NCBI GenBank assembly: GCA_963727625.1
Contig: CAVSHR010000012.1
Span: 480,001 to 544,000 of the forward strand
Length of the DNA: 64,000 bases
Source: an uncultured delta proteobacterium
Lineage (GTDB): Bacteria > Desulfobacterota > Binatia > UBA9968
Reading direction: 5' to 3'
Shown here one piece after another: positions 8,958 to 64,000 of this stretch. The translations under genes and the position numbers were made by a program. The notes below the pieces were generated by a model that saw only the letters and a list, made by a program, of their open reading frames with translations, was not told the DNA's origin and did no database searches. Numbering within the stretch: position 1 is the first letter of the stretch; each line of letters begins with the position of its first letter.

Positions 8958-10118
8958 GTGTCTCCAATGATTTCAATGGCTGACCGTACAGTTTCTTTCT
9001 TTGTGTTCGCACTCGCCCTGGCGATCTCGATGGCGGTCTACTCGCCAACGTGCGGAGCGGCGAATCCTCTAGCGGATCTCGTAGCGGCTGCTAAAGGAGA
9101 GGGCGCCTTAAATGCCGCTGTTGTCTCGAGCTTACATGGCAAAGCTCACCCAAAACTTGCCGCGGCTTTCAAGAAGCGCTTCGGGCTTGATGATATTGAC
9201 CTAACGATTACAAACGTAACAAGCTCGACGCACTACGGCAGAGCTGCGGCTGCAACTCGGGCTGGTGCGGTGCCGACCTATGATACAATTGAAGGATCTG
9301 AGCTCAGCAATATTCAGCTCATCGGGATTGGCGGTACGCAGACAATTGAAAATTGGCAGTCCTTATTGGCCGGAATCAACCCGCTGGTGCACTCGGGAAA
9401 GGTTCGCCCTCAACAGATCAGCCCAAAGCCATTTACCGGTCACGGTTTCAAGTACATGTCGCGGGTGAAGGCATTATTATACAATCCCAAACTTATCTCT
9501 GAATCCGAATTGCCTAAGACGCATGCTGACCTCGGCAATCCAAAATATAAAGGTATGTGGACGCAGCCTCCGTGGACGTCCCATTGGGAGGTCGGCCCCC
9601 TGATTTTTCCCGATTTAGGCAAGGAAAAATGGGTGGACGTGGTACGGAAAGCTGGGAAAAACGCCCGCGCCGTGCAGTCAGCGTCGAAAGGTGTTCAGCG
9701 AGTCCTTTTGGGTGAGTTCGCCTTCGGGTTGGCTAACACTTACGAGGGGCTACGAGCGCAGGATCGAGATTCGGACTCCCCGATCGCAGTTGCCTATTTT
9801 GCGGATTACAACCAAACCAATTCGGGCTATTACGTCGTTCGGAAAGGGGCTCGGCACCCTGCGGCCGGGACCCTTTTTGCTTTGTGGATGGGAACGCCCG
9901 AAGCCAAAAGCATCTGGCAACCGGTGACCTATGGCACACAGTTTTTGTGGGGTGAAAGTAAGCTGGATCGTACCGTCAGAGAGCTGATCAAAAAGAGCGG
10001 GGCCCGTATCGTTGATTATCTGGAGAGTGACGAAAGTTTGGCGCTGTTAAAGTGGTACGGCACTGGAGAAGGGAGAAAATATAGCAAAGCCCTGGCCCAA
10101 GCTATAAGGGGACAGTAG
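8958..10118 (+). CDS. ABC transporter substrate-binding protein (Fe(III)/polyamine-type)
   Basis: Signal peptide, AAAKGEG, YNPKL..LPKT..DL..PKYKG and ARHPAAG motifs. The exact start is uncertain. Confidence 0.85.
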   Translation: MSPMISMADRTVSFFVFALALAISMAVYSPTCGAANPLADLVAAAKGEGALNAAVVSSLHGKAHPKLAAAFKKRFGLDDIDLTITNVTSSTHYGRAAAATRAGAVPTYDTIEGSELSNIQLIGIGGTQTIENWQSLLAGINPLVHSGKVRPQQISPKPFTGHGFKYMSRVKALLYNPKLISESELPKTHADLGNPKYKGMWTQPPWTSHWEVGPLIFPDLGKEKWVDVVRKAGKNARAVQSASKGVQRVLLGEFAFGLANTYEGLRAQDRDSDSPIAVAYFADYNQTNSGYYVVRKGARHPAAGTLFALWMGTPEAKSIWQPVTYGTQFLWGESKLDRTVRELIKKSGARIVDYLESDESLALLKWYGTGEGRKYSKALAQAIRGQ

Positions 10119-10187
10119 AGAAGTGGAAACCCACGCTGGTTTTGGCCTTCCGCTGGCTCGGCCAGCGGTCTGTTAATCGGTATTTTA

Positions 10188-12032
10188 ATGTTCGAACACA
10201 AGAGCACTGACATGCATGGAGTCGAGCAGACTACGGCCAGAGACAAAGTCGACCGGATTCGCGCATGGTGGAGACCGAGGCTCGATTCCGACACTCTCGT
10301 GAATGGGTTACCTCTGGCATGTTCCTGGTTCATTTCATCACTTGTGCTGGCTCTAATGACATTTGTGTTTTATATGACGTTTGTCCCCGGACTGCCGACT
10401 GAGGCAGGGTGGACATTGAAACACTGGGCAAGTATTGCCACGCCACGCATGCTGACGGAAGTTCTGCCGAATACGTTAATCGTTGGGTTCGGCACGATAC
10501 TTGTGGTGACATTCTTCGCCTTGCCTCTGGCGTGGCTGCTCAATCGCACCTCTTTGCCCTTCCGAAACGTCTTTATCACTTTGATGGCTTTGGTGGTGGT
10601 TATACCCGGTTTTATCAAGGCCATGGGCTGGATTCTGCTCGTCAACGACCGGATTGGCCTCGTGAATAAAGCCGTAGCCAACTTATTGGGTTTGAAAACC
10701 GTCCCTTTGACAGTTGTCAATAATCCTTTCGGTATGGCATGGGTCATGGGATTGATGCTTACCCCAACGATGTTCTTCTTGATTTCGGGTCCCATGCGTG
10801 CGTTGGATCCGTCTTTGGAAGAAGCTGCAATGGTGTGCGGGCTCAATCGGTGGCGATTGATTCGTCGAATCAGCTTTCCTCTTGTTTGGCCGGGGACGCT
10901 CGCGGGAATCATATATATTTTTATGACGTCCATCTCCACCTTTGAAGTACCTGCGCTCCTGGGTGCGGCGAGCGGAAAGGTTCCCGTGTTGGCGACGGAA
11001 CTCTTTTATGCGGTGAGGCCAAGCGGCATCGAGATGATTGAACCCGCCTATGGTGCGGCTGGGGTGTACGGCACGCTGATCGCCGTTCCAAGCGTGGTCG
11101 CTCTTTACTGGTACCTGCGGCTGTTGAGCCGAGCCAGGGCGCACGAAGTGATTACTGGCAAAGGTTATAGGCCGCAAGCGTTTGACTTAGGGCGATTTAA
11201 ATGGGTGGCGCTGACGTTTGTCGTACTTTATCTCTTCCTTGCAGCTATCTTACCGTTGCTTGTGTTAATCTGGGCGTCGTTATTGCCGATCCTCCAGATG
11301 CCCTCGGCCGCAGCCTTTTCTAAGATCAACTTCTCGAACTACAACGATCTGATTCCCGCTCTCGGTGGCGCATCGGTTGTTTGGAATACAATCTTATTGA
11401 TGGGATGGGTGTCGGTTCTGGTCCTGTTTTTTAGCGTGATGATTTCTTGGGTCGTCGTCCGCGCGCGGGTCAGATTCCACAGCTTAATTGATTTAATCGC
11501 CATGGTGCCACACGCAATTCCGGGACTGGCGTTCGCGTTCGCACTGATGATGTTGGCGCTACTTTTGTCACGTTGGTTTCCATGGCTGCCGTTTAGCGGA
11601 ACCCTGGGGATAATCGTGATCGCGGGACTAATAAACCGATTGTCGTATGGCACTCGGGCGACGAACGCGGCCTTAATCCAAATCCAGGTGGATCTGGAGG
11701 AGTGTGCTCGAGTCTGCGGGCTTCGCAATCTTTCGATTATACGGAAGATTATTATTCCCTTGGCGATGCCGACTCTTCTCTTTACCGGTTTATGGACGGC
11801 CCTTCTGACGTTTCGTGAGGTGACCATGGCATTGTTTCTTTCCGAAAGCCGCAACAGAGTGCTGTCCGTCAACATCTGGTACCTTTGGCAAAATGGGAAT
11901 CTTGGAATTGCTGCAGCCGGGTCTGTACTGATGGTGGTTGTCGCGGGAGCCCTGATGCTAATCATCCTGTCATTTAGCGGTCGCCAGTTCGGCGATCAGG
12001 GACGTGCGGGTTTAAGCGTGTCGCGAATCTAA
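10188..12032 (+). CDS. ABC transporter permease (FbpB-type, two TM domains)
   Basis: Two EAA loops (DPSLEEAA, DLEECARVCG) and an ITGKGYRP linker. Confidence 0.9.
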   Translation: MFEHKSTDMHGVEQTTARDKVDRIRAWWRPRLDSDTLVNGLPLACSWFISSLVLALMTFVFYMTFVPGLPTEAGWTLKHWASIATPRMLTEVLPNTLIVGFGTILVVTFFALPLAWLLNRTSLPFRNVFITLMALVVVIPGFIKAMGWILLVNDRIGLVNKAVANLLGLKTVPLTVVNNPFGMAWVMGLMLTPTMFFLISGPMRALDPSLEEAAMVCGLNRWRLIRRISFPLVWPGTLAGIIYIFMTSISTFEVPALLGAASGKVPVLATELFYAVRPSGIEMIEPAYGAAGVYGTLIAVPSVVALYWYLRLLSRARAHEVITGKGYRPQAFDLGRFKWVALTFVVLYLFLAAILPLLVLIWASLLPILQMPSAAAFSKINFSNYNDLIPALGGASVVWNTILLMGWVSVLVLFFSVMISWVVVRARVRFHSLIDLIAMVPHAIPGLAFAFALMMLALLLSRWFPWLPFSGTLGIIVIAGLINRLSYGTRATNAALIQIQVDLEECARVCGLRNLSIIRKIIIPLAMPTLLFTGLWTALLTFREVTMALFLSESRNRVLSVNIWYLWQNGNLGIAAAGSVLMVVVAGALMLIILSFSGRQFGDQGRAGLSVSRI

Positions 12033-12167
12033 TGCACCCGTTGGGAAATGTGAACAACTGTCCCCGAGCCCGTAAGTCTTTTACTGATGTGGCCATTTCG
12101 ATTAGAGCTGTCGTGGCGGCTTGCGTTCGCTAAATTCCCCTACTTAAAACTTGAATAATTTATTAAG

Positions 12168-13268
12168 ATGGTCGGGATCTATCAGCTGCGAAAAAATTTC
12201 CGGATGCGAACTGGTGAAGTCCCTGCTCTAAGAGGGGTCGACTTGGAAGTCAAAGAAGGGGAGATATTTACGATGCTCGGCCCGTCAGGGTGTGGGAAAA
12301 CCACCATCCTTCGGTGTATCGCCGGGTTGGAGAAAGCGGATACAGGAAAAATCACCATTGATGGGGAAGTCGTTTTTGACGCGGATGCTAACGTGATGGT
12401 TCCTGCGTATGGGCGGGGTGTCGGCATGGTGTTTCAGTCCTACGCAATCTGGCCGCACATGAGTGTGTTTCAGAATGTTGCTTTGCCACTCCTGGAGGGG
12501 ACATTCAGGATCCCAAAGTCGGAAGTTAAGTCTAGAGTCAGTCAAGCGCTGTCCTTGGTGATGTTGGAAGGATTGGGGGAACGACCGGCCACATTGCTCA
12601 GCGGTGGTCAGCAACAGCGCGTTGCTTTAGCGCGGGCATTAGTTTATAGGCCAAAACTTTTACTGTTGGACGAGCCTTTGAGCAACCTCGACGCGCGTTT
12701 GAGAGCTGATATGCGATTAGAATTGCGTGAGCTCGTGGAAACGCTGAACATGACGTCGGTGTACGTGACGCATGACCAAGATGAGGCCTTGGCGCTTTCC
12801 GATCGGATTGCTGTGATGGAAAAGGGTATCATACTACAAATCGGCACGCCACGGGAGATTTACACGACGCCGGCAAACGACGCAGTCGCGTGTTTTATTG
12901 GGGAATCGAACCTGTTATCGGTCACGGTACAATCTGAGCGAGAAGGAGACGGATACCGACTGGTTAACAGTGCACTTGGCCTGATGTCATGTCGGATTCC
13001 AGGATCCATAGGAGTCGGAGCGGTGGTTACTGTTATGTTTCGCCCAAATGACGTCAGGTTGGAAAGAGAAGAAGCCGGCCCTGAGACGAACATGTACCAA
13101 GGATTCGTCAAACGGACTGTTTACCTTGGTAGCCGACTACGCTGTGAAGTTGAAGTCGCGTCCACAAAGATTTTGGCCGAGGTCCCGTCGTCTCGTGACA
13201 TCAAGGAGCGCCAGGCAGTAAGCGTGCACATTCCACCGGATCAAATATGCGTTCTAGCCGGTAACTGA
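12168..13268 (+). CDS. ABC transporter ATP-binding protein (FbpC/PotA-type)
   Basis: [22 protein letters not shown] and VTHDQ motifs; TOBE-like tail. Confidence 0.95.
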   Translation: MVGIYQLRKNFRMRTGEVPALRGVDLEVKEGEIFTMLGPSGCGKTTILRCIAGLEKADTGKITIDGEVVFDADANVMVPAYGRGVGMVFQSYAIWPHMSVFQNVALPLLEGTFRIPKSEVKSRVSQALSLVMLEGLGERPATLLSGGQQQRVALARALVYRPKLLLLDEPLSNLDARLRADMRLELRELVETLNMTSVYVTHDQDEALALSDRIAVMEKGIILQIGTPREIYTTPANDAVACFIGESNLLSVTVQSEREGDGYRLVNSALGLMSCRIPGSIGVGAVVTVMFRPNDVRLEREEAGPETNMYQGFVKRTVYLGSRLRCEVEVASTKILAEVPSSRDIKERQAVSVHIPPDQICVLAGN

Positions 13269-60135: not shown

Positions 60136-60846
60136 TTACGGCAACTTGAATTCGGCCCGCAGCCGCTCCAATGAGGATAACCTCGCGAGCCGCTGCAGGA
60201 CGGTCGTGGTCGGCGGTAAAATGGGAAAGTCGCGGCGATCGACGCGGCTAATCGCCTCTGCCGCGTTTATCCATAGACTGTGGGTGACTTCTTCGGAGCG
60301 GCGCAGCGCCCTCTGCTTGGACGGTTGAGCAGCGATATAAAAGCGCGTATCGAAGCGCATCGAATAAATGTCGGGGGTCACCCAATGATCGAAATAAACC
60401 GCCCGCGTCAGGTCGCAAAAAAGATTTTCCGATTCTAAAAACGCGCTGAAATCGAGTTCCTTGCGCACGATAGCCTGGCGCTTATTCTCAATACGCTGTT
60501 TGGCGGCCTGATCGCTGACCGCGACTTCCTCTCCCGCTTCATTTACGCAGAGCAAAACGCCGACTTCTTCGAACAGCTCGCGCACCACCGCCACCCAATG
60601 GCCGAGCGCTTCGTTCGGTTCGCGGCGGTTGTCCAGAATGCCGCGTGCTTCCTCGCCGGAAAGGCCGCGGCAACGGCGCAACATGGAAGGCGAATAGTCG
60701 GACTCGTGCACCGTGCCACCGGGAAAGACATAAAAGCCGCCGAGAAAACGCATCTCCGGCGGCCGGCGCGTTAAGAGAAGCTCGAAACCGCCCCGCTCAT
60801 CCGGTCGCACGAGCACGACGGTGGAAGCGTAGCGGGGAATTACCAT
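60136..60846 (-). CDS. NUDIX hydrolase
   Basis: FPGG, RELFEEVG, HWVTP and RFDTRFY motifs. Confidence 0.92.
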   Translation of the reverse strand: MVIPRYASTVVLVRPDERGGFELLLTRRPPEMRFLGGFYVFPGGTVHESDYSPSMLRRCRGLSGEEARGILDNRREPNEALGHWVAVVRELFEEVGVLLCVNEAGEEVAVSDQAAKQRIENKRQAIVRKELDFSAFLESENLFCDLTRAVYFDHWVTPDIYSMRFDTRFYIAAQPSKQRALRRSEEVTHSLWINAAEAISRVDRRDFPILPPTTTVLQRLARLSSLERLRAEFKLP

Positions 60847-60854
60847 CGGTAAAG

Positions 60855-61000
60855 AATTCCGAAATCCGAAACTCGAAACAAAGTTGAACTTAGAGAAATC
60901 TCAACCTGCGAAAACCCGTAAAACCAATTTCAGTTGAGTTAGTTTGGAAAATTAATTCGTTGGACATTTGAATTGGTTTCGAGTTTCGAAATTCGGATTT
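60855..61000. mobile_element. ORF-less element with inverted 7-bp-period (AAATCCG-like) ends
   Basis: AATTCCGAAATCCGAAACTCGAAACAAA ... GTTTCGAGTTTCGAAATTCGGATTT. The right end matches 63907-63942 at 32/36. Confidence 0.65.
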
Positions 61001-61021
61001 TGAGTAACGGTTGCCTTCCTC

Positions 61022-62065
61022 CTACATTCTCCCTAACTCGCGCAACAGCTTCTCCCACTTCTCATTTTCCTTATCGTACTGGGTCGCGGACATTCCCGCC
61101 TCGGGATAGTAACGCTTGAAGTCCGGTTTATTGGTGGCGCTGTCGAGACCGAACTTGCCGAGGAATTTTTGTCCCTCAGGGCTTACAAGAAAGTCGGCGA
61201 ACAGCAAGGCCGCATACGGGTGCGGTCGATTGGCCGGCACGGCAACACCGCCCGCGTTGGTCGGCACGACGTCCATCGGCACCCACTTGATCGGCGCGCC
61301 TTTTGCGATCGACACGCGCGAATGGCTGAGAAACACCGTCGGCGACACGCCCACCTCGCCGGAGATCACCATATCGAGCAGCGCCCGACCCGACACCGAA
61401 TGCAAGCTGACCTGTTGCTCCTTGAGTTTCTTGACAAACTCAGCGCCTTTGCTGGCGAGCATGGCGGCGATCACGCGCTTGCCGGTGTCGGTCGTGGAGA
61501 AGCCGATCCTGTCCTTGAGCTCGGGTTTGAGCAGATCTTCGTAGCCCTTCGGCACCGCGCTTCCCTTCACCGAGTTTGTGTTGTACGCAAGCCCGATGTA
61601 GGACTCGCGGTCGGTCATCCAGTAGACCAAACCCTTGTCGGCTTTTTCCTTGGCTTCGTCCGGATAGTGGGCCGAATAGGGAGAATAGTACGGCGTCAGC
61701 AGTTTATATTCCTGCATCAGTTTCAGAGCCGGAAAAGTCGTTTCGATCGTGTCGACCAGAAAGCGCTTGGCCTGAGCTTCCTGCAAAACCCGCTGAATGA
61801 TTGCGTCGCTGTTGCCGCGGTAGACTTCGAGCTTGACGCCGGGGTACTTCGCCGCGAAAACCTTCGGTGCTTGCTTGTTAGGTCCGCCGGTTAGCGAGGT
61901 GTACCACATCAACATCCCTTCTTTCTTCGCTCCCTCATAAAGCATCTTTTCGCGGTCGGGTTTGTTGTACGCGGCCAGCTCGGCCATCGACATGGGTTTT
62001 TCTTGGGACCATACCGGGGATATCCAATTCAGCGCAACAGCCATCATCAATAGCAAAATGCTCAT
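61022..62065 (-). CDS. ABC substrate-binding protein (Fe(III)-type), orphan
   Basis: Signal peptide; GAKKEG, PKGYEDLL and PHPYAALLF motifs. Confidence 0.92.
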   Translation of the reverse strand: MSILLLMMAVALNWISPVWSQEKPMSMAELAAYNKPDREKMLYEGAKKEGMLMWYTSLTGGPNKQAPKVFAAKYPGVKLEVYRGNSDAIIQRVLQEAQAKRFLVDTIETTFPALKLMQEYKLLTPYYSPYSAHYPDEAKEKADKGLVYWMTDRESYIGLAYNTNSVKGSAVPKGYEDLLKPELKDRIGFSTTDTGKRVIAAMLASKGAEFVKKLKEQQVSLHSVSGRALLDMVISGEVGVSPTVFLSHSRVSIAKGAPIKWVPMDVVPTNAGGVAVPANRPHPYAALLFADFLVSPEGQKFLGKFGLDSATNKPDFKRYYPEAGMSATQYDKENEKWEKLLRELGRM

Positions 62066-62251
62066 TGCTGTCTCTCCTTGCTTGGCAATAGAATATGAGA
62101 AATTTTTATCATTGTCGGAAGGAGTAAAACAACCGACGGTCCTGTTTGCAACAGAGGAACGCTTTCACCGGGCGGGATTGAGCGCGGTTATTTCCAATTT
62201 TAGTTATGCTTTTCCGTGACGATTCGAAGGGCGGCCCGGGTTGATCGCAAT

Positions 62252-63367
62252 CTATTCTTTGAAGCGAATAATATTATATGCGGCAATAGGACGGTGAAAA
62301 CCCTTGAGCGAAAGCTCGCCGGCCGCCTCGGCCTCGACCAATTCTTCGATGCTGCCGAGCAAACGCTGGGAGGCCAGAATTTCCCCCGGCTTTGCTTCGC
62401 CGCACAGGCGCGCCGCCAGGTTTGGCACACTGCCGATCGCGCCGTACTCCCAACGTCCCTCATAACCGATTGCGCCGATGGTGGCGTAACCTTGCGCGAT
62501 GCCGACGCCGAAGTCGAGGTCGTAACCGAGTTTGCGCCATTTCACGGTCAGTTCTTTCACTCGCTCACGCATTGCCAGAGTCATGCGGATCGCGCGCTCG
62601 GGTGAATTGGGCACCGGCACCGGGTCGTTAAAAAAGATCATCATGCCGTCGCCCGCGAAGTGTTCCAATGTTCCTTCGTACTCGAGAATCAGCGTTCCCA
62701 TCGCCGCATGGTATTCATGCAAGATATTCATGACCTCTTCGGGCTCGGCGGATTCCGCGAAAGCCGTGAAACCACGCAGATCCAGATAAACCACGGTGAG
62801 CTCACGGCGATGGGTCTTCAGCGGATCGTCGGCTTCGCCGCTCACGATCAGTTCGGCGAGTTGCGGCGCGAAAAAGCGTTTGAGACGCCCGAGCCGCTCG
62901 AGCTGGGCCAGCTGATCCCGGACGCGCTGCTCCAACATTTTGTTCCACTCAGCAAGCTCGGCGGATTGACTCTGAACCCGATCGTGCAGCTCTTTTATCC
63001 GGAGCAACGACCGCACGCGCGCGAGCAGCTCGGCTTGATTGATCGGCTTGGTGAGAAAATCATCTGCGCCGGCGTCGATACCCTTCACCCGTTCCTCCGC
63101 CGGGTCCAGGGCGGTCACCATGATCACCGGAAGCATCGCCGTGGCGGAACTGTCGCGGATCTTCCGGCAGACCTCGTAGCCGCTCATCTCCGGCATGACG
63201 ACGTCCAGGAGCACCAAATCAGGACTCTCAGCTCCCATCTGAGCCAATGCCTCGCGACCCGATGAAGCCGTCACGACGTGGTAGCCCTTGACCTCCAGCA
63301 GGTCTGCGAGCAGCTTTACGTTCCGGGGCGTGTCATCGACGACAAGAATCTTTGGAGGAGTATTCAT
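62252..63367 (-). CDS. Response regulator receiver plus class III adenylate/guanylate cyclase
   Basis: LVVDD, LLDVVMP and KP; DLRGFT, GDG and N.AARL. Confidence 0.95.
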   Translation of the reverse strand: MNTPPKILVVDDTPRNVKLLADLLEVKGYHVVTASSGREALAQMGAESPDLVLLDVVMPEMSGYEVCRKIRDSSATAMLPVIMVTALDPAEERVKGIDAGADDFLTKPINQAELLARVRSLLRIKELHDRVQSQSAELAEWNKMLEQRVRDQLAQLERLGRLKRFFAPQLAELIVSGEADDPLKTHRRELTVVYLDLRGFTAFAESAEPEEVMNILHEYHAAMGTLILEYEGTLEHFAGDGMMIFFNDPVPVPNSPERAIRMTLAMRERVKELTVKWRKLGYDLDFGVGIAQGYATIGAIGYEGRWEYGAIGSVPNLAARLCGEAKPGEILASQRLLGSIEELVEAEAAGELSLKGFHRPIAAYNIIRFKE

Positions 63368-63380
63368 TCGAACAAACTCG

Positions 63381-63954
63381 TAATCCGAATATCGAAATCC
63401 GAAACAAACCCTCTGAGGTCAAATCCGAAATTCGAAGCACGAAATCCGAAATAGACTGGAAATCCATTAACCGCGTGCTTCAAGCTAGTTTATTTAATTT
63501 ATTCACTCTTTCGCAGAATCGCACCAAATATACCGGTCAACTCCGTTGACTCTCCGACAAGATCAACGCGCAATTTCTCAAGGGCCAACTCACCACCGAT
63601 GTCGATCAACCGCAACCAATAGCGGCTTTCCTCGGCCTCTTTACGACATATTCTGATTCTCATAAGAAAATCTTTCTTGCTTAGCGATTCATTGGCCTCG
63701 ATATAGTTAGCTCCGACCGAACCAGACGCTCGCATTACCCGTTTTGTATCCTCAGTATTTGCCAACGCCTTTGGAATTGTTTTGACAAAAAGGCGAACGA
63801 TTTCCGCAAAATCGAAGGGTCGGTCTTCGAGATCGTATTGTCTGAACCCCAATTCGGCTTTCATGTCTGGTGTTTTGCATTATTGATCTCGGAGCCCGGA
63901 TTCTATTTGGTCATTTGAATTTGTTTCGAATTTCGGAATTCGTGCTTCGGATTT
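63381..63954. mobile_element. Four-helix-bundle gene cassette bounded by inverted 7-bp-period repeats
   Basis: Arms 63381-63408 and 63421-63451 are inverted relative to 63920-63954 (22/24 for the best pair). Confidence 0.65.
63499..63864 (-). CDS. Four helix bundle protein (23S rRNA IVS-protein/Avd-like family)
   Basis: YDLEDR, RASGSVGANYIEANE..SKKDF and KEAEESRYWL motifs. Confidence 0.9.
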   Translation of the reverse strand: MKAELGFRQYDLEDRPFDFAEIVRLFVKTIPKALANTEDTKRVMRASGSVGANYIEANESLSKKDFLMRIRICRKEAEESRYWLRLIDIGGELALEKLRVDLVGESTELTGIFGAILRKSE

Positions 63955-64000
63955 ATCTCCTTGTGGCGAGTACTCTTTCAACTTCGCCGAGAAAATCCTT
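63953..64000 (-). CDS. 3' end of an upstream gene, probably a single-domain response regulator (partial)
   Basis: KDFLGEVERVLATRR* resembles the last helix of a receiver domain; it runs off the window. Confidence 0.45.
   Translation of the reverse strand, partial: KDFLGEVERVLATRR

Follow-up and report, generated by a model that had tools for sequence, protein, structure and literature searches.

A four-helix-bundle gene between inverted heptamer arrays in a Binatia genome is probably one copy of a dispersed family of mobile cassettes that lack a transposase

INTRODUCTION

The 23S rRNA genes of Leptospira and Coxiella contain intervening sequences (IVSs) in which a small open reading frame (ORF), S23p, lies within terminal inverted repeats, and the protein family PF05635 is named after them. 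Short IVSs without an ORF also exist. In one account of these elements, the Coxiella IVS bears an S23p ORF and a 28-bp terminal stem of near-complete complementarity, and RNase III cuts this IVS in vitro (PMC4990558). The same account describes IVSs as selfish, patchily distributed, and suspected of horizontal transfer, recalls an old proposal that the ORF serves mobility, and gives a Xanthomonas member of the family as a homopentamer (PMC4990558). Here we describe a gene of this family on contig CAVSHR010000012.1 (assembly GCA_963727625.1) of an uncultured delta proteobacterium of the class Binatia. The stretch that we analyzed, called the window below, is 64,000 nucleotides (nt) long, and in it the gene is enclosed by inverted arrays of 7-nt units, or heptamers, in the spacer between a receiver gene and a receiver/cyclase gene. 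We refer to the gene and its arrays as a cassette and to the arrays as its arms.

Two further systems resemble this locus. Avd, the accessory protein of diversity-generating retroelements (DGRs), is a pentameric, basic protein that acts on nucleic acid encoded beside its own gene. PF05635 has been reported as the Pfam family that most often adjoins DGR reverse transcriptases (PMC10053308). The published intergenic heptamer repeats share with the cassette arms a 7-nt unit, arrays of about four units, and an intergenic position, often by start codons without a Shine-Dalgarno sequence. The short tandemly repeated repetitive (STRR) heptamers of heterocystous cyanobacteria are among them. Others are GGGAATC in Xanthomonas, GGGGA(T/C)T in Nostoc, and TAACTGA in Beggiatoaceae, cyanobacteria, and Bacteroidetes (PMC4692102, PMC4679880). 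Xanthomonas campestris has 70 convergent (inverted) GGGAATC pairs (PMC4692102), and two convergent arrays of four units each, separated by 60 nt, fill its groES-groEL spacer (PMC4692102 supplement). The unit sequences of these repeats differ from those of the cassette arms. Horizontal spread of the repeats has been suspected, “but no mechanism is evident” (PMC4692102, PMC4679880). The main texts of these two papers contain no mention of S23 or four-helix-bundle genes, and our literature search, which left subscription journals outside its range, found no paper linking heptamer arrays to a PF05635 gene.

RESULTS

Heptamer arms recur around relatives of the window gene

A genome scan with the window protein matched at least 602 stretches of DNA, 537 of which encode a relative of it. 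We kept the best 80 (56-72% identity), which together with the window make 81 cassettes. These loci, given L numbers below, were picked by similarity to the window protein, and nearly all come from metagenome-assembled genomes. Close relatives of the window protein number in the thousands: 7994 of 8000 scored candidates were homologous, with top identities of 70-81%, and the homologues that are named in their source carry the name “four helix bundle protein.” Many close homologues lie on very short contigs of about 500-2000 bases, which may fit assemblies broken by multicopy elements or may simply be typical contig sizes for metagenomes.

A strict detector found a plus-oriented array upstream and a minus-oriented array downstream, within 250 nt of the gene, in 47 of the 80 loci, an array on one side in 16, and none in 17. 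The last 17 do hold arrays, with a different seventh base (for example, AAATCCT with AGGATTT). With a generalized detector and the same 250-nt limit, arrays were found on both sides in 61 loci, on one side in 18, and on neither side in 1. The first-pass annotation had asked whether such repeats are enriched by these genes, and they are: arrays number 2.54 per kb close to the gene and 0.098 per kb elsewhere. In the 1.18 Mb made up by the window and the related loci, the generalized detector reported 278 arrays, 274 of them four to six heptamers long, versus 2 in block-shuffled sequence. The heptamer pattern is not due to chance. The sole locus without a detectable arm, L014, carries a tandem pair of four-helix-bundle genes, the first with an internal stop, together with a duplicated flank and only degenerate arrays (9968-10715).

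An inner AAACAA served to anchor both arms in 52 of the 80 loci. Each arm is 35 nt long and consists of four heptamers of the AAAnnCG type followed by AAACAAA, the two arms lying in inverted orientation. The arm ends are sharp, because the next 7 nt outward in these 52 loci are unrelated flank. The gene's first in-frame ATG stands exactly 5 nt past the left arm in 33 of 61 anchored loci and is not preceded by a Shine-Dalgarno sequence. The cassettes mostly lie in sense orientation between codirectional genes: of the upstream neighbors, 45 of 55 run in the direction of the gene, as do 46 of 57 downstream neighbors. In 25 of 45 cases, the upstream stop codon ends close to the array, at -2 to +10 nt. 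A crude recount of neighbor strands, in which several minus calls are known errors, gave plus on both sides in 43 of 66.

Cassettes are dispersed, present or absent at orthologous spacers, and decayed

The 81 cassettes occupy at least 59 contexts, as defined by flank similarity, under 21 phylum labels that are mixed on a poorly resolved tree (34 label changes versus a minimum of 20). A comparison of orthologous spacers for empty sites, proposed in the first-pass annotation, turned up differences at spacers other than that of the window. A short element in L011 is missing from the same spacer in L012 and L007, and one in L078 is missing from L061. In one spacer, which precedes a conserved gene, the content varies by genome: L040 has a G-class cassette there, L043 an AAAAGGC cassette, and L008 a short element; L021 keeps a single arm, and L012 shows nothing but a terminator-like hairpin.

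In addition to gene-bearing copies, we found 31 ORF-less arm pairs, including 6 in L001 and 5 in L034, and in some contigs these outnumber the gene-bearing ones. In one of them (L006, 10506-10674), a deletion has left coding sequence for only the N-terminal 15 residues, MTETPGDRQYGLEDR; the short elements are therefore deletion derivatives. Internal stops interrupt 4 of the 80 genes. In the Syntrophobacteraceae contig L001 (900-11210), every spacer of a 12-kb signaling cluster (receiver, cyclase, 2183-residue GAF histidine kinase, four-helix-bundle gene, receiver, and cyclase) holds a short heptamer-armed element, several with one left and two right arms as in the window copy.

More distant members of the family carry arms of other sequence. 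Matches in a plasmid collection were all distant (no more than 40% identity), and a phage collection gave two weak partial matches. Of nine distant family genes (24-44% identity), six are borne on plasmids and three are second copies within the loci; four of the six plasmid genes lie between codirectional neighbors, for example, a resistance-nodulation-division (RND) adaptor and a permease. All nine are accompanied by other 7-nt arrays. Autocorrelation was highest at a lag of 7 in 6 of 9 upstream flanks and in all 9 downstream flanks, and the inverted-repeat score exceeded all 100 shuffles in 6 of 9. As far as these comparisons go, heptamer sequence varies with protein clade. A second, distant cassette type has AAAAGGC/GCCTTTT arms (L043, 12690-13215; L063, 3200-3850), and its protein in L063 is about 30% identical to that of the window. 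On a Nostoc plasmid (L081, 217-1521), a four-helix-bundle gene with GTAAAAA-type arrays stands between cas2 and cas1, and on a Pseudanabaena plasmid (L082, 598-1533) one stands directly upstream of cas1.

Taken together, the two-armed loci, the many contexts and phylum labels, the empty sites, the replacement of one cassette type by another, and the ORF-less derivatives support mobility of the cassette family, in agreement with the self-propagating element suggested in the first-pass annotation. The window region is one copy of this widespread family, and we consider it probable that the family acts as a mobile element lacking a transposase, whose arms would be bound by its own protein. Between 49.7 and 64 kb, 12 ORFs were scanned against Pfam and none encodes a transposase; the first-pass annotation had likewise noted none.

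[quoted passage not shown] If the cassette were an ordinary MITE, the arms would be terminal inverted repeats for a transposase encoded elsewhere, and the four-helix-bundle gene would be a passenger. The sharp-ended inverted arms, the surplus of ORF-less copies in some contigs, and the empty sites are what a MITE would give. However, direct repeats of 2-6 nt at the junctions of 52 elements were at or below shuffled expectation, and this lack of a target-site duplication sets the cassettes apart from REP/BIME and MITE elements, as does the lack of a RAYT or DDE transposase. The only gene ever enclosed, across all 21 phylum labels, is a PF05635 gene encoding a helical bundle of 120 residues, and the heptamers change with the clade of that protein. 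Moreover, the start codon lies at a fixed distance from the arm, as if built into it, and for this reason we take the gene to be part of the element and not its cargo. The MITE explanation is thus quite improbable.

The protein resembles solved family members and, by fold, Avd

The window ORF matched PF05635 (23S_rRNA_IVP) with an E value of 4.7e-10 (40.1 bits; cut-off, 33.8), and its AlphaFold2 model is a confident four-helix bundle (mean predicted local distance difference test score, 92.3; helices at residues 14-28, 34-58, 63-86, and 93-120). Searching with this model in Foldseek retrieved PDB entries 2RLD (template modeling [TM] scores, 0.72/0.80) and 2GSC (0.71/0.76) and the Avd chains 8UB7_E (0.71/0.77) and 4DWL_C (0.62/0.67). 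The kinship with 23S IVS proteins and the likeness of fold to Avd that were named in the first-pass annotation are both borne out by these matches. The Foldseek E values for Avd are weak (0.11-0.27), which is what a generic bundle would be expected to give. At the sequence level, 2RLD was matched directly (E = 2.7e-10), and in a profile search of the PDB 2RLD (E = 2.6e-41) and 2GSC (E = 0.051) were the sole matches at E ≤ 1, with none to Avd. A further difference from DGRs is that no reverse transcriptase was found among the 12 scanned ORFs; template and variable repeats were not searched for.

The entries for 2RLD and 2GSC hold five chains each. With the solved relatives read as homopentamers, one heptamer per subunit, and thus five per arm, is possible; we infer this from the coincidence of five heptamers with five subunits. 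A prediction with four copies of the protein scored 0.06, 0.37, and 0.02 against a mark of 0.42 and speaks neither for nor against assembly.

The arms can pair but look like arrays of a motif

The duplex between the two arms of an element averages -31.35 kcal/mol, versus -9.4 kcal/mol with a shuffled partner. Folding of the whole element, which the first-pass annotation had advised for 63370-63960, placed the left arm L against the outer right arm R2 in the minimum-energy structure; z was -3.15, and 0 of 20 shuffles reached this stability. A second whole-element fold gave z = -3.0, a stability that 1 of 200 shuffles reached. These values suit an RNA intervening-sequence model, in which the arms would pair in the operon transcript and be kept for that stem, and an RNase III-like cut would free the ORF RNA and separate the cistrons. 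The model also draws on the codirectional neighbors, which amount to a sense bias, and on the Coxiella IVS as a precedent. Additionally, the seventh heptamer base is the same in both arms in 50 of 61 loci, with switches at no fewer than three points of the tree, and all four pair versions (G-C, U-A, C-G, and A-U) occur.

However, several comparisons run against selection for a stem. At the variable heptamer positions 3 to 5, the arms match at 6.06 of 12 positions within elements and at 6.13 ± 0.20 with permuted partners. A left arm gains nothing from having its own partner: with right arms of other elements the duplex energy is -31.06 kcal/mol (P = 0.81). Nor does stability separate sense from antisense duplexes (P = 0.51). 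Mismatches reach 43-50% at heptamer positions 4 and 5, and G-U mismatches are not in excess over A-C mismatches (81 versus 94 and 122 versus 140). The preferred heptamer also differs, being AAGCACG in left arms and AATATCG in right arms. Rfam gave no match in the window or in 60700-64000, either at the gathering cut-off or at E ≤ 1. Because there is neither element-specific covariation nor a G-U bias, the arms look like two inverted arrays of one recognition motif and not like a selected stem. The first-pass annotation had the arms pair and loop out the ORF: the pairing holds as a possibility, and the idea that the arms are kept for it gains no specific support. RNA excision is possible, with no specific support from these comparisons, and we regard the RNA model as doubtful.

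As in a 23S IVS, complementary termini surround the window ORF, over 23-31 nt at 77-92%, without covariation. The cassettes lie between protein genes, whereas IVSs lie in helix 25 or 45 of the 23S rRNA, and Rfam found no rRNA in the window or in nine related loci (which yielded one tRNA only). The cassette arms are five-heptamer arrays, in contrast to the 28-bp stem of Coxiella. Excision by RNase III has been shown for IVSs; for the cassettes it is a prediction of the RNA model.

The window copy is old and partly degenerate

The features of the window locus, which is read on the minus strand, are listed in Table 1 with coordinates of the window. The first-pass annotation had described an upstream TAA running into a heptamer array, a four-helix-bundle ORF between arrays, and two complementary arrays after the ORF, all of which we recovered. 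The final two A's of the receiver stop codon open the first heptamer of L, an overlap of 2 nt. The C terminus of the receiver, KDFLGEVERVLATRR before the stop, matches those of the receivers in the same position in L001 (KDFLEEVRRVLDRK) and L002. A repeat search found three complementary arm pairs in the cassette (25 nt at 92%, 23 nt at 87%, and 31 nt at 77%), the first of them between L and the inner right arm R1; degenerate counterparts of R1 are present in L002 and L001. A distance of 13 nt between arrays and cyclase ATG, as first stated, holds for an array that ends at 63381; under the five-heptamer parse the outer arm ends at 63374, and the distance is 6 nt.

Table 1. Cassette and neighboring features in the 64-kb window
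Feature	Coordinates	Strand	Remarks
Upstream CheY-like receiver gene, 3' end	63953..64000	-	Stop TAA 63955..63953; gene extends beyond the window
Left arm L	63954..63920	-	35 nt: AAATCCG AAGCACG AATTCCG AAATTCG AAACAAA
Relic of canonical start	63903..63914	-	ATG at 63914, 5 nt past L, then ACC AAA TAG (stop)
Second relic start	63865..63880	-	ATG CAA AAC ACC (MQNT); out of frame with the window ORF
Four-helix-bundle ORF, 121 aa	63864..63499	-	PF05635/S23p/23S rRNA IVS protein family
GAAGCACG, possible leftover of a further left arm past the ORF stop	63474..63481	-	Suggested by L001
Inner right arm R1	63455..63421	-	Reverse complement AAATCCG AAATTCG AAGCACG AAATCCG AAATAGA
Outer right arm R2	63408..63374	-	Reverse complement AAACTCG TAATCCG AATATCG AAATCCG AAACAAA
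Downstream receiver and class III nucleotidyl cyclase gene, 371 aa	62252..63367	-	ATG at 63367; PF00072, E = 2.1e-32; PF00211, E = 2.4e-17
Element B, ORF-less copy, 160 nt	60848..61007	-	Left arm 61007..60973; right arm 60882..60855(48)

The same gene order is found in L002: receiver, arm, four-helix-bundle gene, arm, cyclase (83% identity), solute-binding protein (80%), short element, and NUDIX gene (67%). L002 also shares the junction of receiver and arm, in which TAA is followed by ATCCGAAGCACGAATT. Because the cassette is syntenic with L002, the window copy is old and not a recent insertion. In L001, where the cyclase is 77% identical, the spacer before it holds an ORF-less element with L, R1, and R2, and the four-helix-bundle gene is found in the next spacer upstream, with a short element on either side. 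The first-pass annotation had set synteny in all relatives against its own proposal; the cassette is syntenic with L002, and the L001 spacer lacks the ORF. Between the cyclase and solute-binding-protein genes, L002 carries a short element and a cupin-like ORF (11591-12223), and the window has a 186-nt spacer without either (62066-62251).

The gene itself looks worn. Both ancestral starts of the window ORF are gone, the second relic being the start in use by the L001 gene (MQNTKVETKNK...), which in the window reads MQNTRHES... in another frame. In L001, the ORF stop is followed by TAGCTTGG and AAATTCG AAGCCCG ..., that is, by a complete left arm. The window protein departs from the family at 3 of 41 near-invariant columns, joint most among the 81 proteins, 50 of which deviate at none. 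Its isoelectric point of 6.4 is the lowest of the 81 (median, 9.3), and the basic charge that marks its clade is gone. When the spacers of the window, L002, and L001 are compared, L is invariant in 29 of 35 columns and R2 in 28 of 35, versus 9 of 47 in the region between them. Synonymous sites of the gene are saturated, and the ratio of nonsynonymous to synonymous divergence (dN/dS) versus L001 is 0.08. The arms are therefore constrained in place, since their columns remain invariant while synonymous divergence (dS) is saturated. The window copy is old, vertically inherited, and partly degenerate, with arms that are still conserved.

Constraint in place is also what a host spacer module would give, in which host-beneficial arrays, formed partly by replication slippage, are inherited mostly vertically and the small protein is their regulator. 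Candidate roles for such arrays are translation enhancers that replace the Shine-Dalgarno sequence, mRNA stabilizers, and structures of the G-quadruplex (G4) or cruciform type. Synteny across species speaks for this module at the window locus and at the leuC-leuD spacer, where nine Planctomycetota loci share the cassette, and the downstream genes here begin right past an arm without an obvious Shine-Dalgarno sequence. In the published accounts, heptamers occur at start codons that lack Shine-Dalgarno sites (PMC4679880), and repeat-bearing regions are mostly conserved between two Xanthomonas species (PMC4692102). Against it, 35-nt arms and proteins that are 56-72% identical recur under the 21 phylum labels in unrelated contexts, orthologous spacers are occupied, empty, or filled with another cassette type, and decay products, including the genes with internal stops, are frequent. 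We judge a host module to be very unlikely and prefer the mobile cassette.

The cyclase start lies 6-9 nt past the right arm in three of three genomes (window, 63368-63373; L002, 10467-10472; L001, 11200-11208), with no recognizable Shine-Dalgarno sequence in front of it in any of them. The U-rich right arm may serve as the translation initiation region of the cyclase gene. A promoter and terminator scan of 60700-64000 gave the same counts as shuffled sequence.

A second, ORF-less element lies nearby

The window holds one more copy, element B (Table 1), between the solute-binding-protein gene (stop at 61022) and the NUDIX gene (ATG at 60846). Its arms are complementary over 28 nt (86%) and 90 nt apart, and it retains the inner motif AAACCAATTCAAATG of the cassette without the four-helix-bundle ORF. 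A short element occupies the same spacer in L002 (13487-13653). Tandem heptamer units in convergent pairs, as in the published intergenic arrays, are thus present in the window, and they are rare there: the strict detector was positive at only two places in the 64 kb, the cassette and element B, and Tandem Repeats Finder (TRF) reported no other period-7 array beyond about two units. Mechanical ORFs run through the arrays (63333-63467, 63352-63549, 63870-63998, and 60645-60887) and give peptides such as ISDFVLRISDL and SEIRSTKSEI. Read-through of arrays of this kind is a likely origin of spurious hypothetical proteins in databases.

DISCUSSION

The favored reading of this locus is a mobile cassette whose arms are candidate binding sites for its own protein. 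Binding to the arms would aid propagation of the cassette at the DNA level, and candidate routes are insertion without target duplication and recombinational exchange at the generic arms. Binding to the left arm, which stands beside the start codon, could also autoregulate the gene on its transcript.

Several points weigh against this reading. Recognition of the arrays by the protein is a plausible hypothesis, and no protein column cleanly tracks the G versus T class of array; the differences mostly mark one Planctomycetota clade. The insertion mechanism was not found: no target-site duplication was seen, and the cassette has no recognizable nuclease, recombinase, or reverse transcriptase. The count of 61 two-armed loci in 80 holds for the clade of the window protein, because the loci were chosen by protein similarity, and the distant members sampled number nine. 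The neighbor strands rest on crude ORF calls that include known errors, and misbinned contigs could inflate the phylum spread, since the loci are almost all from metagenome bins. Finally, the synteny at the window locus and at leuC-leuD, together with the constraint on arms in place, would also fit a spacer element that is useful to the host.

A link to the published heptamer repeats suggests itself. In X. campestris, a GGGAATC array of four units lies over the start codon of XCC0516, whose protein is the one in PDB entry 2GSC (PMC4692102 supplement). On this one data point, published heptamer arrays may be the arms of PF05635 cassettes and their ORF-less remains. In its widest form, the proposal would make the PF05635 pentamer a sequence-specific reader of heptamer arrays, with each subunit taking one 7-nt unit and each arm offering five, and the sole element-encoded factor of a transposase-less cassette that inhabits operon spacers and, historically, 23S helices in many bacterial phyla. 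Gene-less remains would then explain the intergenic heptamers (STRR, TAACTGA, and GGGAATC), and Avd would be a domesticated member. We put this wider proposal forward as an unlikely one.

The practical consequences concern annotation and assembly. Arms probably explain many spurious “hypothetical proteins” that are read through repeats, and they may cause breaks in metagenome contigs.

For the biology of the family, the cassette bears on three decades-old loose ends, namely, the role of the S23p/IVS family, the origin and spread of 23S IVSs, and the excess of intergenic heptamers; it may account for the 7-nt repeats that have attracted notice in bacterial genomes for many years. Should the cassette reading hold, all three would be faces of one element family, each open to binding, RNA-mapping, and mobility assays. 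It would be a mobile element without a recognizable transposase, in which the number of units in an array matches the oligomeric state of its only protein, and it would supply Avd, the accessory protein of DGRs, with an ancestry.

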